DNA of 64,000 bases, taken from the NCBI GenBank assembly GCA_964403505.1, contig CAYOFP010000001.1, positions 6,548 through 70,547 on the forward strand, written 5' to 3'. This document shows, piece by piece, positions 55,495 to 59,322 of the stretch. The first letter of the stretch is position 1. The number at the start of each line of letters is the position of its first letter. Position numbers and translations under genes: made by a program. The notes under the pieces are model-generated. The model had not been told where the DNA came from and did no database searches. It was given only the letters and a program-made list of their open reading frames with translations. The stretch comes from an uncultured Lachnospiraceae bacterium (GTDB lineage: Bacteria > Bacillota > Clostridia > Oscillospirales > CAG-272).

Positions 55495-55522
55495 TGGTGC
55501 TCCTGTGGAGAATCGAACTCCG
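55495..55522 (-). other. tRNA 3'-end fragment (T-arm, acceptor 3' strand and CCA): candidate att core of the integrated element
   Basis: Minus strand reads CGGAGTTCGATTCTCCACAGGAGCACCA. No matching 5' acceptor strand (GCTCCTG), D-arm or anticodon arm lies upstream. Confidence 0.7.
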
Positions 55523-55587: not shown

Positions 55588-56610
55588 TTATAATGCGTTG
55601 TTGAGAATTTGGGCGGCGTTATCGATTGATTGAGAGCGCAGATCGGTATAAATATCCATTGTGGTAGAAAGTTGTCGGTGTCCGAGCATCTCTTGGATCG
55701 TTTTCGGCGGGACGCCACATTCAAAAGCAACAGTGGCAAATGAATGACGCAGCTGGTGCGGCGTACACTTGATGCCTGTTTTCTTCTTATAAGAGGACCA
55801 TAGTTTCATAAAATAACTATGGCTTAGGGGATTCCCTGCCGTATCGGCGATGATATACCGTTCGGGATCGTTCGGCAGAAGCGGTAACAGTTTTTCTGCG
55901 AGCGGAATCAATAGAGGGATCGTGCGAATTCCTGCCTCGGTCTTTGGCGCTTTGATCAACGGGCGGTTTCCGTCAAAGCACACAGATTTAGTGATACTAA
56001 TACGCTTTTTCTCAAAATCAATATCTTTCCACTGCAGAGCAAGTATCTCTCCTTTTCTCATCCCGGTCATGACGGCGATATACGGAAACAGCCACAGCTC
56101 AGCATTGTCTTTAATTATCTGCTCATCTGTCGATGATGCGCTGACACGTTTTGTTTTTTCTAAATTCTTCGGTATGCTGACTGATGCGCAGGGATTATAC
56201 AGAATATCGTTTTCTAACACCGCATGAGTACAGATCAGATTTAATACCATTCTGCTATTTGCAATCGTCTTACGTGCGAGCCCCTGCGATGCTAAGCGCA
56301 TCAGGTACAAATTGATATCACGCGGGATAATATCCTTGATCAGGTCAGAGCCGAAGGCTGCATCCGCACGTTGCTTTGCATTGCGGTAGGTATGCACAGA
56401 CTGTATCGCAAGTTTCGGTTCGGCGTCTTCCCACCATTCGTCGGATACCTCACGAAAGGTACGGCCGCGCTGGGCGCGACCGGAAAACTCCATGATTTTA
56501 CGGTTGATCTCGCGTTCGGTCTCGCCGTAGAAATACACACGCTTGCCGGTACGTGGATCGGTCATTGTTTTTACATATCGCCCGTCCGGGCGTTTTTTTA
56601 GTTTTGACAT
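55588..56610 (-). CDS. int: Tyrosine-type site-specific integrase
   Basis: HQLRHSFAT...LGHRQLSTTMDIYTD catalytic region and an N-terminal phage-integrase arm/SAM-like domain. The start is chosen at MSKLKKRPDG. Confidence 0.93.
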   Translation of the reverse strand: MSKLKKRPDGRYVKTMTDPRTGKRVYFYGETEREINRKIMEFSGRAQRGRTFREVSDEWWEDAEPKLAIQSVHTYRNAKQRADAAFGSDLIKDIIPRDINLYLMRLASQGLARKTIANSRMVLNLICTHAVLENDILYNPCASVSIPKNLEKTKRVSASSTDEQIIKDNAELWLFPYIAVMTGMRKGEILALQWKDIDFEKKRISITKSVCFDGNRPLIKAPKTEAGIRTIPLLIPLAEKLLPLLPNDPERYIIADTAGNPLSHSYFMKLWSSYKKKTGIKCTPHQLRHSFATVAFECGVPPKTIQEMLGHRQLSTTMDIYTDLRSQSIDNAAQILNNAL

Positions 56611-57503
56611 TGTAATATCTTGTCGTGGCTTTTCGGAGTTAGGATGGATTTCCACTCGTCTGGAAATCCCATAGTATTGATTTTGACTGCGGGATATTTT
56701 TCTATAAGCAACCCAAGCTGATCAACAAAATCATCCCAATGGATATCATGCGGGATAAGATGATAAAAACATATTAAAACTCCGAATATACGAATATTTC
56801 CTATGCCTGAAGCGGAATATTGCTTATACAATGTCGGCGTTTTTGTGAGTTTGGCATTATAGAGTCTTCCATAGTGCGCACAAAGATTACGTACATATGC
56901 TATACTTTCAATCCAACTTTCAAGATAGGTATATCCAATATCATATGTTTTCGCAACCGCCTTTTTATCCTCGTTCTTCATATTTTTGAAAAATTTAGAG
57001 AGTGTTCCAAAACTGAATAACTCCACTGCCGCATACATTGGAATTGTAGCTTCTTTGTAGTGTTCCTGAAAATTCCTCACGAATGGAGCTCTTTTGTTCC
57101 TTTCAATCTCTAATTGAAGATCTTCCATGAATTCCATATGATAATCTATATTTGCAAAGTTATCCGGATTCATATACCCGAGCACATCGTACTTATATGA
57201 AAAATAATTTGCGATACGACATCGTAAGTTTATTTCTACTCGCTCTATTATGGGTAAGAGTAACTGTCTGAAATTACAGTTGAATTTGTATAACTGCACA
57301 ATCTGGTCAAAACTGACGCCGTTATAATAGTTTCCGTTTTTAGGTTTTAGTCCTAAGCTGTATGCTTTTATCAGGCGGAAATATGAAATATCATTCAGAA
57401 TTTCTTTTGCTTGCTCATCGTCGTCGATAATTAAATCAAGCGTACGTAAATTCTCTATTTGTTGTTCCACGGTAAGCGGTGGTTGTAGTTCTTTTAACTT
57501 CAT
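56598..57503 (-). CDS. Abi_2 family (AbiD/AbiF-like) abortive-infection protein
   Basis: LTVEQQIENL...ISYFRLIKAY...LYKFNCNFRQLL...ELFSFGTLSKFF...VRNLCAHYGRLYN matches the family's hallmark pattern, including the RNxxAH motif. Confidence 0.85.
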   Translation of the reverse strand: MKLKELQPPLTVEQQIENLRTLDLIIDDDEQAKEILNDISYFRLIKAYSLGLKPKNGNYYNGVSFDQIVQLYKFNCNFRQLLLPIIERVEINLRCRIANYFSYKYDVLGYMNPDNFANIDYHMEFMEDLQLEIERNKRAPFVRNFQEHYKEATIPMYAAVELFSFGTLSKFFKNMKNEDKKAVAKTYDIGYTYLESWIESIAYVRNLCAHYGRLYNAKLTKTPTLYKQYSASGIGNIRIFGVLICFYHLIPHDIHWDDFVDQLGLLIEKYPAVKINTMGFPDEWKSILTPKSHDKILQCQN

Positions 57504-57513
57504 GGATTACTCC

Positions 57514-57565
57514 GAAAAAATTAAATGACCCGACATGGTACGCATCGTTGAGAGGCGTGTCGGGT
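57514..57565 (-). promoter_or_regulatory. Leader hairpin with a U-rich tail between the abi promoter and the abi start (attenuator-like; may also terminate the upstream gene)
   Basis: ACCCGACA (57528-35) pairs with TGTCGGGT (57558-65). The minus strand then reads CATTTAATTTTTT. It lies downstream of the promoter at 57578-57606. Confidence 0.45.
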
Positions 57566-57577
57566 TCTGTTACTATT

Positions 57578-57606
57578 ATTATATGCAAAATGAACCCGGT
57601 TGTCAA
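57578..57606 (-). promoter_or_regulatory. Consensus sigma-A promoter for the abi gene (TTGACA-17 nt-TATAAT)
   Basis: Minus strand reads TTGACAaccgggttcattttgcaTATAAT. Confidence 0.6.
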
Positions 57607-57613
57607 TCATTTT

Positions 57614-57642
57614 TGCAACTTTTTTTGCTTTTTTGTATAATT
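57614..57642 (+). promoter_or_regulatory. Back-to-back plus-strand promoter (TTGCAA-17 nt-TATAAT), antisense to the 199-aa gene
   Basis: Plus strand reads TTGCAActttttttgcttttttgTATAAT. Confidence 0.4.
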
Positions 57643-57646
57643 CACG

Positions 57647-57680
57647 GCACTCTATGGTACTTTACAGCACTCTATGGTAC
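57647..57680. repeat. Two 14-nt direct repeats GCACTCTATGGTAC with a 20-nt period
   Basis: 57647-57660 and 57667-57680 are identical. Confidence 0.8.
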
Positions 57681-57691
57681 GATATACGCCA

Positions 57692-58291
57692 TTAGTTTTG
57701 ACACTCTTCCTGATATGATAATACCATCTCTTTAAATGCATCATCTGCTAATGATTTTGTCACGAAAGGAAAAACCTTATGAAACATTTCCCCGTTGGGT
57801 GCATCGGAAAGCGTTTTACGGATCATCTTCTCAATTTTTGCCTTTTTACTGATGACAGAATCGACGCATGTATGGGCGTCAGCTCCCATTCCTCGAAAAA
57901 TTAGTGCCTCAAGTTGCATTGTAAGATTTACTAAATCACGGTTATCCGAAAAATCTGTGAAAGGACTATTCATTTGATGGTAAAGGTCTACGCATATTAT
58001 TCCTGCTTGCGAATACTGAACCGCACGCGTAAGATCATAGATGCTGAAAATACCATTCTCTAAATATCCGTAGCAGTCAATCAAAGCAGTAGCGTATAGT
58101 TTTTGTTCTTCTGTAAACAATGAGGAATTCTGCGAATGCTCTATAATGTAATAGATAGTTGCAATGTTTTTGGCGATATAGCCATAATTTCCACCGGCAG
58201 ATAGCACATCATACATTGCGCATATCTTATTTCTCATAAGCCAAAGAATAAGTGCGATAAATGATAAAATTAGTATAAACATGGAGATCAC
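57692..58291 (-). CDS. Hypothetical protein with an N-terminal TM helix (lysogeny-module cargo)
   Basis: 199 aa starting MISMFILILSFIALILWLM. No recognisable motif. It lies between the repressor and the abi gene. Confidence 0.6.
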   Translation of the reverse strand: MISMFILILSFIALILWLMRNKICAMYDVLSAGGNYGYIAKNIATIYYIIEHSQNSSLFTEEQKLYATALIDCYGYLENGIFSIYDLTRAVQYSQAGIICVDLYHQMNSPFTDFSDNRDLVNLTMQLEALIFRGMGADAHTCVDSVISKKAKIEKMIRKTLSDAPNGEMFHKVFPFVTKSLADDAFKEMVLSYQEECQN

Positions 58292-58440
58292 CTCAAAAAT
58301 GATATTTATCAGAGTTTCCGACTCAAATCAGATCACGTCGCTTTGGAATGCGATGGCTTTTTTGTTTGGGCAACTTGCCCATTATGTATAGTAAATCGTA
58401 TAAAAATAAAGATTCCCGTTCGGCGCAGGGATTACAAACT

Positions 58441-58899
58441 CTATTTTGTATCGGTATGCGCCGGATGGAAATCTTTGCTGAGTTGGAAAGCCATATCATC
58501 TGCTATGCTTACCGTGTTAGGTTGAATCCCTAAAAGCGTATCAACTGCACTTTGCATCTCTGACTTGGTGCGATATGCGAGGATAAGCTCTTGCTCGTGA
58601 TTTGTAAGAGTTATATTGAAAGGTATAACTGCTTCCGAGGATGCTTGCAACTGCTCGCCTGCCCGGTCTGATTCTTGCGGGATCATATTAGTATCATATC
58701 CCATCAACCACGCCGGATCTACATTCAGCACCTTTGAGATCTCCGAGAGCAACAGACGCTTCGGTTTTCTTTTTCCGTTAATATATGCGCTGACAGACTG
58801 CTTTGATATTTGCAATTCAGCCGCTAATGCCGTAACACCTATGTTACGGTAATCCATTGCTGTTTTTAGTCTTTCGCTGAATGATGAAATAAATTCCAT
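58441..58899 (-). CDS. XRE family (CI-like) phage repressor
   Basis: FSERLKTAMDYRNIGVTALAAELQISKQSVSAYINGKRKP is an HTH_3 sequence. AGGAGA RBS precedes the ATG at 58899. Divergent from the cro-like gene. Confidence 0.85.
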   Translation of the reverse strand: MEFISSFSERLKTAMDYRNIGVTALAAELQISKQSVSAYINGKRKPKRLLLSEISKVLNVDPAWLMGYDTNMIPQESDRAGEQLQASSEAVIPFNITLTNHEQELILAYRTKSEMQSAVDTLLGIQPNTVSIADDMAFQLSKDFHPAHTDTK

Positions 58900-58919
58900 G
58901 TCTTTTCTCCTGTGGCTCG

Positions 58920-58948
58920 ATTGTACCATATATTTGTACACTTGTCAA
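58920..58948 (-). promoter_or_regulatory. Repressor promoter (TTGACA-17 nt-TACAAT)
   Basis: Minus strand reads TTGACAagtgtacaaatatatggTACAAT. Confidence 0.6.
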
Positions 58949-58988
58949 CAAATTTTTACATTAAACGAATAAAAATTCCGAAAAGTGG

Positions 58989-59017
58989 TTGACAAATGAA
59001 ATTAACGATGTTATAAT
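58989..59017 (+). promoter_or_regulatory. Early (lytic-side) promoter (TTGACA-17 nt-TATAAT)
   Basis: Plus strand reads TTGACAaatgaaattaacgatgtTATAAT. AGGAGA RBS and ATG at 59053. Confidence 0.65.
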
Positions 59018-59052
59018 TCAACTGTCCACAAAGTAGACGAAAGGAGAAAAAT

Positions 59053-59322
59053 ATGGAAACTAAAAATTTTCGCGGTATTGTTTTGAATAAGTATCGATCG
59101 ATTGCGGATTTTTCTCACGCAATTGGATGGAGCTATCGAAAAGCGTATAGTATTGTCAATGGTACTCAGGATCCAAATGTAGATGATGTGCGCCAAATGG
59201 CAGAAGTACTCGATCTGCAGTCGAAAGATGAATTTATCAGTATTTTTTTTGCGCCGTTGTCCACATTGTGGTCGAACGAGCGCTTTGAAGAAACGCGACT
59301 ATGGCAGAAAGGAGATTTATAA
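59053..59322 (+). CDS. Cro-like HTH protein
   Basis: 89 aa. YRSIADFSHAIGWSYRKAYSIVNGTQDP is HTH-like. It is the first gene of the rightward operon. Confidence 0.65.
   Translation: METKNFRGIVLNKYRSIADFSHAIGWSYRKAYSIVNGTQDPNVDDVRQMAEVLDLQSKDEFISIFFAPLSTLWSNERFEETRLWQKGDL

Follow-up and report, generated by a model that had tools for sequence, protein, structure and literature searches.

An AbiD/F-type toxin-antitoxin unit and a predicted membrane-tethered protein as two probably independent cargo units in the lysogeny region of a Clostridia prophage

Introduction

AbiF-type systems, which are type III toxin-antitoxin and abortive infection (Abi) systems, are regarded as ancestral to Cas13. Here we analyse two cargo genes of a prophage carried on a stretch of DNA of 64,000 nucleotides (nt) from an uncultured Lachnospiraceae bacterium (assembly GCA_964403505.1, contig CAYOFP010000001.1), hereafter the window. 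One gene, abiD, encodes an Abi_2 family protein of the AbiD/F group, and the other, orf196, encodes a small protein with a predicted N-terminal transmembrane (TM) helix.

AbiF is a HEPN RNase toxin that is neutralised by a non-coding RNA (ncRNA) encoded in cis (PMC12373285, PMC13064643, PMC12737573; structure 8VZ6). An earlier reading of this DNA from its letters alone (the sequence-only reading) held that the mechanism of the Abi_2 family is poorly defined, a view that these studies have made outdated. In Clostridioides difficile, transcription of the antitoxin RNA RCd22 begins at a SigA promoter and ends at a terminator, with abiF motifs in the RNA from position +9 onwards (the first from +9 to +41) (PMC12373285). 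It is made mostly as a short RNA, with occasional read-through into abiF, and it neutralises the toxin through direct binding, in cis as well as in trans (PMC12373285). As summarised in PMC12737573, a cryo-electron microscopy structure has the ncRNA obstructing the HEPN site. AbiF and its own RNA suffice in the published systems (PMC12373285).

We consider it likely that the abiD unit and orf196 are two independent cargo units expressed in the lysogen rather than one two-gene system, with orf196 taken, more tentatively, as a superinfection-exclusion or defence protein.

Results

The abiD gene is preceded by an abiF RNA leader

The 301-amino-acid (aa) product of abiD carries the RNLCAHYGRLYN motif and matches the Abi_2 family over its full length. 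The Pfam Abi_2 profile (PF07751) gives 174 bits, with its cut-off at 25.6 (E 5.2e-51, profile positions 1-184 of 184), and the PADLOC AbiD profile scores 331 bits (E 1.3e-99, profile positions 2-276 of 277), bearing out the family assignment made in the sequence-only reading. In PHROGs, the protein matches phrog_2158, "abortive infection resistance protein". Chain A of the solved AbiF-ncRNA complex (8VZ6_A) aligns with the window protein over residues 13-286 (phmmer E 8.7e-30), and identity to phiC2 AbiF is 32%. The Rx4H motif VRNLCAH (R205, H210) aligns with VRNQCAH (R202/H207) of phiC2/AbiFCd, and also with RNSCCH of 8VZ6. Substitution at R202/H207 in AbiFCd abolishes the toxicity of the C. 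difficile protein (PMC12373285). AbiD/F genes are common in temperate phages; we found 41 phage records, including pneumococcal prophages in which repressor, small membrane protein, Abi gene and integrase follow each other in this order.

A SigA/sigma-70 promoter (57606-57578) that matches the consensus at every position lies 75 nt upstream of the abiD ATG. An Rfam scan of 56400-59200 placed the abiF RNA motif (RF03085) between promoter and gene; the whole model is matched (positions 1-37 of 37), with 46.0 bits where the gathering score is 37 (E 1.2e-6). As a positive control, the phiC2 abiF leader, which holds the RCd22 RNA, scored 37.6 bits with the same tool. The motif starts about 7-8 nt past the predicted transcription start, and the leader runs for about 68 nt to the ATG. 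The hairpin has a fold energy of -20.8 kcal/mol (z -2.7), and a U-rich tail and a GGAG ribosome-binding site follow it (57527-57504). Observed in the window itself are the family of the protein, its catalytic motif, the RNA motif, the promoter, and the order of these elements. Taken together, abiD and its leader (57606-56598) read as a self-contained unit of protein and RNA, of the AbiD/F type III toxin-antitoxin/Abi kind that has already been described.

By analogy with the published systems, toxicity, RNA binding and phage defence would be expected of this unit. Transcription from the SigA promoter would produce a short leader, the first ~45 nt of which would fold as the abiF RNA motif, followed by the U-rich tract. 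Most transcripts probably end at the hairpin and U-tract and would supply an abundant RNA antitoxin, with rare read-through transcripts giving rise to the AbiD/F HEPN RNase (R205, H210). The abiF RNA would bind the HEPN dimer and block R205 and H210, such that the RNase is inactive in the RNA-protein complex. Phage infection would upset the ratio of the two partners, or the complex itself, leading to non-specific RNA cleavage and cell arrest.

At the nucleotide level, the window leader region shares 81% identity with a locus from a different genome within the order (L030), which appears to fit the reported better conservation of AbiD/F leaders than of the genes themselves. In L030 (1484-1619, G684:C19), the identity spans the abi -10 box and the abiF hairpin of the window. 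A tblastn search found no Abi_2 open reading frame (ORF) downstream of it, only an 87-aa low-complexity ORF beside a recF-like gene, and the L030 sequence may be an orphan or decayed abiF leader.

Relatives of orf196 accompany lysogeny modules rather than Abi_2 genes

The sequence-only reading had placed two cargo genes between repressor and integrase on the lysogeny strand. Both are present there, one of them with a start codon that we correct below. It had also grouped them as a candidate pair, to be given up if relatives of the smaller protein never co-occur with Abi_2 homologues. We examined 19 other loci that hold an orf196 relative, several of them on short contigs, and none contains an Abi_2 gene, as judged by Pfam scans of the neighbours and by phmmer and tblastn searches with the window AbiD. 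Conversely, a family profile hidden Markov model (HMM) run on the AbiF/Abi loci L027 and L028, and on L030, where only the abiF-leader look-alike is present, picked up no relative of orf196. Nor do the two genes share a single transcription unit free of internal signals, as a perfect promoter and the abiF RNA lie between them. Because abiD has this promoter and RNA of its own, and because the two families do not co-occur in the 19 loci, we take abiD to be independent of orf196, and the proposed pairing is not supported.

The gene orders around the relatives are given in Table 1; L012, L019, L020, L043 and the fusion loci L025 and L026 complete the set.

Table 1. Gene order around relatives of orf196. 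X, orf196 family member; HTH, helix-turn-helix; M78, ImmA-like peptidase.
Locus	Gene order
L001	HTH, M78 (ImmA-like), X, DUF3644
L002-5	HTH+S24 repressor, X, 110-aa multi-TM protein, HicA, HicB
L006	339 aa, X, SNIPE (DUF4041 + T5orf172)
L007/L018	divergent M78, X
L010/L021	HTH, M78, 224 aa, X, tyrosine integrase 38% identical to that of the window
L011	HTH, 145 aa, X, 262 aa, Gp49/HTH (HigBA-like), serine recombinase
L013	X, PD-(D/E)XK nuclease
L022	integrase, X
L023	HTH+S24, X
L024	HTH-like 370 aa, X, ..., serine recombinase
L041	HTH, X
L042	X, 213 aa, integrase

In L001, L002-5, L010/21, L011, L023, L024 and L041, the family member has a repressor (HTH+S24, or HTH plus M78 peptidase) upstream on its own strand, either immediately or one to two genes away, and an integrase or recombinase is nearby in L010, L011, L022, L024 and L042. 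The gene downstream of the family member varies, being AbiD, HicAB, SNIPE, DUF3644, a PD-(D/E)XK nuclease, HigBA or directly the integrase. Judged by these gene orders, the constant partner of orf196 appears to be the lysogeny module (repressor with or without ImmA, and integrase) and not Abi_2. The downstream gene is a variable defence or toxin-antitoxin slot, which the AbiD/F cassette occupies in this prophage.

Two further proteins recur beside orf196 relatives and are not in the window. One is an unannotated multi-TM protein of ~100 aa (L002 2636-2968, L018 1274-1582, L020 4-273), and the other is a secreted or membrane protein with a YHYHHGY..H.H..G.CPY block (L006 160-1179, L011 6588-7376, L019 1563-2522).

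Streptococcus phage IPP16 (L027, KY065457.1 1-5252) has a repressor, a small membrane protein (149 aa, C-terminal TM helices), an Abi_2 gene and an integrase, and its locus contains no abiF motif at gathering score. The IPP16 gene in the same slot was considered as a homologue of orf196 and rejected on comparison.

orf196 belongs to a rare family with a conserved all-alpha domain

The mechanical ORF call for orf196 runs from 57692 to 58291 with a GTG start and 199 aa, the length given in the sequence-only reading. That GTG lies inside the Shine-Dalgarno sequence GAGGTGA, and the ATG at 58282 has this GAGGTGA properly spaced, 5-6 nt upstream; the product is therefore likely 196 aa long, beginning MFILILSF/MFILILSFIALILWLMRNK. 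The public gene call starts at Met23 (174 aa), which is without a Shine-Dalgarno sequence. Apart from its length, the protein is as that reading described it, with one N-terminal TM helix (mean Kyte-Doolittle value of 1.96 over residues 2-20) and no recognisable domain.

Searches of Pfam, NCBIfam, PHROGs and PADLOC gave no match to orf196, and comparison of 66 family members with Pfam one by one (E<=1) yielded noise only and nothing consistent. A tblastn search of 50,697 phage records found no relative, a profile search of PDB sequences reached a best E of 0.4, and a search for related loci gave a few with a tight family alignment but, with the TM-helix subgroup of the family, none in viral contigs. 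The family is visible only by exhaustive profile HMM search of 1.84 billion representatives, a word-indexed search having given 4-8 relatives. It comprises ~200 clusters (50% identity) at E<=1e-3 and 121 at E<=1e-10, and is rare, being present in 3 of 398 other Clostridia species genomes. The conserved positions are G30, N32, A37, N39, I43 and Y44, followed by D69, M122-Q-L-E125-A-x-I-F129 and I150, and we propose GGNF-x-IA-x-N-x-A-x-IY (for the first six of these positions) and MQLEA-x-IF as signature motifs.

The AlphaFold2 model of orf196, built from 16 sequences, has a mean pLDDT of 88.7 and a pTM of 0.82, and consists of an N-terminal helix, an all-alpha domain and one small hairpin. Foldseek searches of PDB and BFVD with this model returned nothing (best E 0.6-1.0, TM-score at most 0.27), and an earlier model (pLDDT 67) had no match in PDB.

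An N-terminal TM helix, within the first ~40 residues, is present in 34 of 155 family members. Summed over these, lysine and arginine (K/R) residues number 7 in the ten residues before the helix and 62 in the ten after it, a positive-inside pattern from which we predict that the conserved domain is cytoplasmic (N-out/C-in). The domain begins merely 3-6 residues past the helix, as in ...VKRKFNNFLFLAKN. Another 44 members, the closest relatives of orf196 included, begin MG[ILF][FL] and have an amphipathic, basic N-terminus (mean hydrophobic moment 0.40 versus 0.29 for shuffled sequences; net charge +1.7). The N-terminal TM helix of orf196 would fit a membrane-tethering theme that runs through the family.

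Longer relatives add N-terminal multi-TM blocks, or C-terminal tetratricopeptide (TPR) repeats or zinc ribbons. At L025 4214-8218 (G224:C5), a 1334-aa protein of polyvalent type, which has an ART-PolyVal domain, ends in the family domain, and at L026 207-1523 (G075:C37) a 438-aa protein carries it as its C-terminal part, immediately behind a terminase large-subunit (TerL) nuclease domain.

The gap between the repressor and orf196 is 158 nt and holds only weak hairpins and a promoter with 9/12 matches. orf196 is probably co-transcribed with the repressor and made in the lysogen.

Possible roles of orf196

Expressed in the lysogen, orf196 would consist of an N-out/C-in membrane anchor with a juxtamembrane all-alpha domain. 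From this we infer, tentatively, a superinfection-exclusion or defence protein of the prophage that acts at the inner face of the membrane. A wider proposal, which we hold to be rather doubtful, is that orf196 founds a new lysogeny-module family of membrane-tethered, cytoplasm-facing effectors, without a fold match in PDB or BFVD, that exclude or abort superinfecting phages, and whose domain has also been taken up by injected polyvalent proteins and by TM-domain-TPR fusions.

Several observations weigh against the account of two separate units with orf196 as an exclusion or defence protein. In the libraries, PDB and BFVD, neither homology nor a fold match backs any activity of orf196, and many of the loci that give its context are short contigs. 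The protein is unrelated to the exclusion protein Sie2009 and has the opposite topology, its nearest homologues have an amphipathic helix instead of a TM helix, and the contexts of the domain in L025 and L026 would be compatible with offence or modification of the host as much as with defence. With respect to the AbiD/F unit, the leader has a single abiF motif, compared with two in RCd22. The integrase start overlaps the abiD stop, so the abi promoter may also feed the integrase gene, an unusual arrangement for a self-contained cassette. Between orf196 and the abi promoter, no strong terminator was found on the minus strand, and some read-through between the two units may occur.

The lack of such a terminator, together with the adjacency of orf196 and abiD on one strand, their shared AT-richness (GC 0.367 and 0.354) and the same gene order in the pneumococcal prophage IPP16, is what could be said for a single defence module of two genes, in which, for instance, a sensor or anchor in the membrane would work with a HEPN effector. 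We regard such a module as highly improbable, given the absence of Abi_2 from all 19 other orf196-family loci, the 12/12 promoter and RNA partner that AbiD has for itself, the published AbiF that works with RNA alone (PMC12373285), and an IPP16 membrane protein that is not homologous to orf196.

The tight linkage to the repressor, with the orf196 relative 20-30 nt downstream of it in L001 and L002, would also suit an accessory of the lysogeny switch, that is, a membrane-anchored protein that modulates the stability of the repressor or the induction of the prophage. The window repressor, lacking S24 and M78, may need a partner for its inactivation, and the orf196 family is more constant in the modules than the downstream cargo is. 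However, three repressor architectures co-occur with the family (plain HTH, self-cleaving HTH+S24 and ImmR/ImmA), which argues against one specific mechanism, and the family is rare, most related lysogeny modules doing without it. Its low GC is typical of morons, and the domain also occurs outside lysogeny contexts, in a polyvalent protein and in a gene beside TerL; on balance, a switch accessory is unlikely. Membrane tethering in the family, fusions of some relatives to multi-TM, TPR or zinc-ribbon domains, and neighbours that elsewhere are often toxin-antitoxin pairs (HicAB, HigBA) or small multi-TM or secreted proteins would be in keeping with a membrane-acting toxin, an addiction factor or a lysogenic-conversion factor unrelated to phage exclusion. 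Yet no small antitoxin-like gene is consistently adjacent to the family, and PDB, BFVD and Pfam searches gave no likeness to a known toxin or enzyme, making this explanation quite improbable.

Prophage context

The two cargo genes lie between an XRE repressor and a tyrosine integrase in a prophage of ~41.4 kb that is integrated in tRNA-Lys(UUU). An intact tRNA-Lys(ttt) is found at the far end of the prophage, beyond the window (G000:C1:103437-103512, L039 1038-1113). On the minus strand, the order in the window is repressor, orf196, abiD, integrase (Table 2).

Table 2. Features of the lysogeny region, in window coordinates. SD, Shine-Dalgarno sequence.
Feature	Position	Strand	Evidence
attL core, 27-nt copy of the tRNA-Lys(UUU) 3' end	55495..55521	.	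100% repeat at G000:C1:103437-103463
Tyrosine integrase	55588..56610	-	Pfam Phage_integrase 3.3e-28; phrog_1 4.4e-65
abiD/abiF-type HEPN toxin (Abi_2), 301 aa	56598..57503	-	Pfam, PADLOC, PHROGs
abiF RNA motif, Rfam RF03085; predicted RNA antitoxin and attenuator hairpin	57528..57564	-	cmscan
SigA/sigma-70 consensus promoter TTGACA-17-TATAAT	57578..57606	-	12/12 matches
Two exact 14-nt direct repeats, GTACCATAGAGTGC, 20-nt period	57647..57680	-	between orf196 stop codon and abi promoter
orf196 (199-aa ORF of the sequence-only reading), N-terminal TM helix and ~165-aa all-alpha cytoplasmic domain (predicted)	57692..58282	-	ORF and SD-ATG
XRE/CI-type repressor, 166 aa	58441..58941	-	Pfam HTH_3 1.2e-10; PHROG transcriptional regulator/repressor families
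Repressor promoter TTGACA-17-TACAAT, near-consensus	58948-58920	-	promoter scan

The GC fractions of abiD (0.354) and orf196 (0.367) are low compared with those of the integrase (0.473), the early region (0.476) and the chromosome (0.479). Both genes are compositionally foreign cargo in a classic moron or superinfection-exclusion slot, which bears out the slot proposed in the sequence-only reading. Among 300 genomes of the same order, we found no related prophage with the same repressor and integrase and other cargo; the only matches were short ones, to the tRNA, the integrase core and the abiF leader.

By Pfam, the window repressor consists of an HTH domain only, without S24 or M78, and divergent near-consensus promoters lie between it and the plus-strand early genes. 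No ImmA-like gene adjoins the repressor. The integrase probably starts at the ATG at 56610 (MSKLKKRPDGRY...), overlapping the end of abiD by 13 nt (56598-56610), and direct reading of the sequence upstream of this ATG revealed no obvious Shine-Dalgarno sequence. The integrase may be translationally coupled to abiD or transcribed with it on the read-through mRNA. The repeat GTACCATAGAGTGC is present in two copies, against 0.16 expected, and nowhere else in the window; the repeats could serve as a binding site for a regulator, or be a scar left when a cassette was inserted.

Discussion

The AbiD/F unit is already explained, and the orf196 family is the remaining point of interest, one without a mechanistic lead. 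The value of the AbiD/F unit lies in annotation: what appears to be a terminator hairpin before the gene would be read as an RNA antitoxin, and the locus offers a minimal example of a single-motif leader. Temperate phages of gut Clostridia are poorly characterised, and orf196 represents an unannotated, confidently folding family consistently placed directly after the repressor, with a recurrent membrane tether. It is a concrete candidate for a new role in exclusion or defence, and it marks a hotspot of defence cargo in Clostridia prophages that can be mined for other systems.

Comparison with known systems

Sie2009 of Lactococcus phage Tuc2009 occupies the same slot as orf196 (integrase, X, repressor, divergent cro). 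The two proteins, of 173 and 196 aa, each have a single N-terminal TM helix, and expression in the lysogen is expected for both. They differ in topology: in Sie2009 a basic N-terminus precedes the TM helix and the domain is mainly extracytoplasmic, whereas in the orf196 family the K/R residues follow the helix and the all-alpha domain is predicted to be cytoplasmic. A homology between them was considered and rejected, as comparing the profile of 66 family sequences with Tuc2009 orf2 by hhalign gave a probability of 0.4%. Lambda rexAB, P22 sieA/sieB and other defence genes co-transcribed with a repressor resemble orf196 in that they come right after the repressor on the lysogenic transcript and have a membrane-associated product. 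orf196 has no sequence or structural similarity to them, and it is a single gene.

The lactococcal systems of the AbiD/F group, AbiD, AbiD1 and AbiF along with AbiD-like, belong to the same Pfam and PADLOC family as the window protein and have the same two-component logic of protein and RNA (PMC13064643). There, the upstream non-coding region is needed for tolerance (PMC13064643). The lactococcal systems are plasmid-borne, whereas the window unit, known from sequence alone, is prophage cargo in a Clostridia genome.

The closest counterparts are AbiF of C. difficile phi027/phiC2 with RCd22, and PbAbiF-AbiFr of Prevotellaceae (8VZ6). Like the window protein, both are Abi_2/HEPN proteins of ~300 aa with a conserved Rx4H motif. 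The phi027/phiC2 system is also prophage-encoded, with a SigA promoter, an abiF-motif RNA and a U-rich tract directly upstream of the ORF. The leaders differ in size, with one abiF motif and ~68 nt from transcription start to ATG in the window, compared with two motifs and 168 nt in the RCd22 system. The position within the prophage differs as well: the C. difficile unit is located inside the lysis module, whereas the window unit is located in the lysogeny module beside the integrase, its stop codon overlapping the integrase start.

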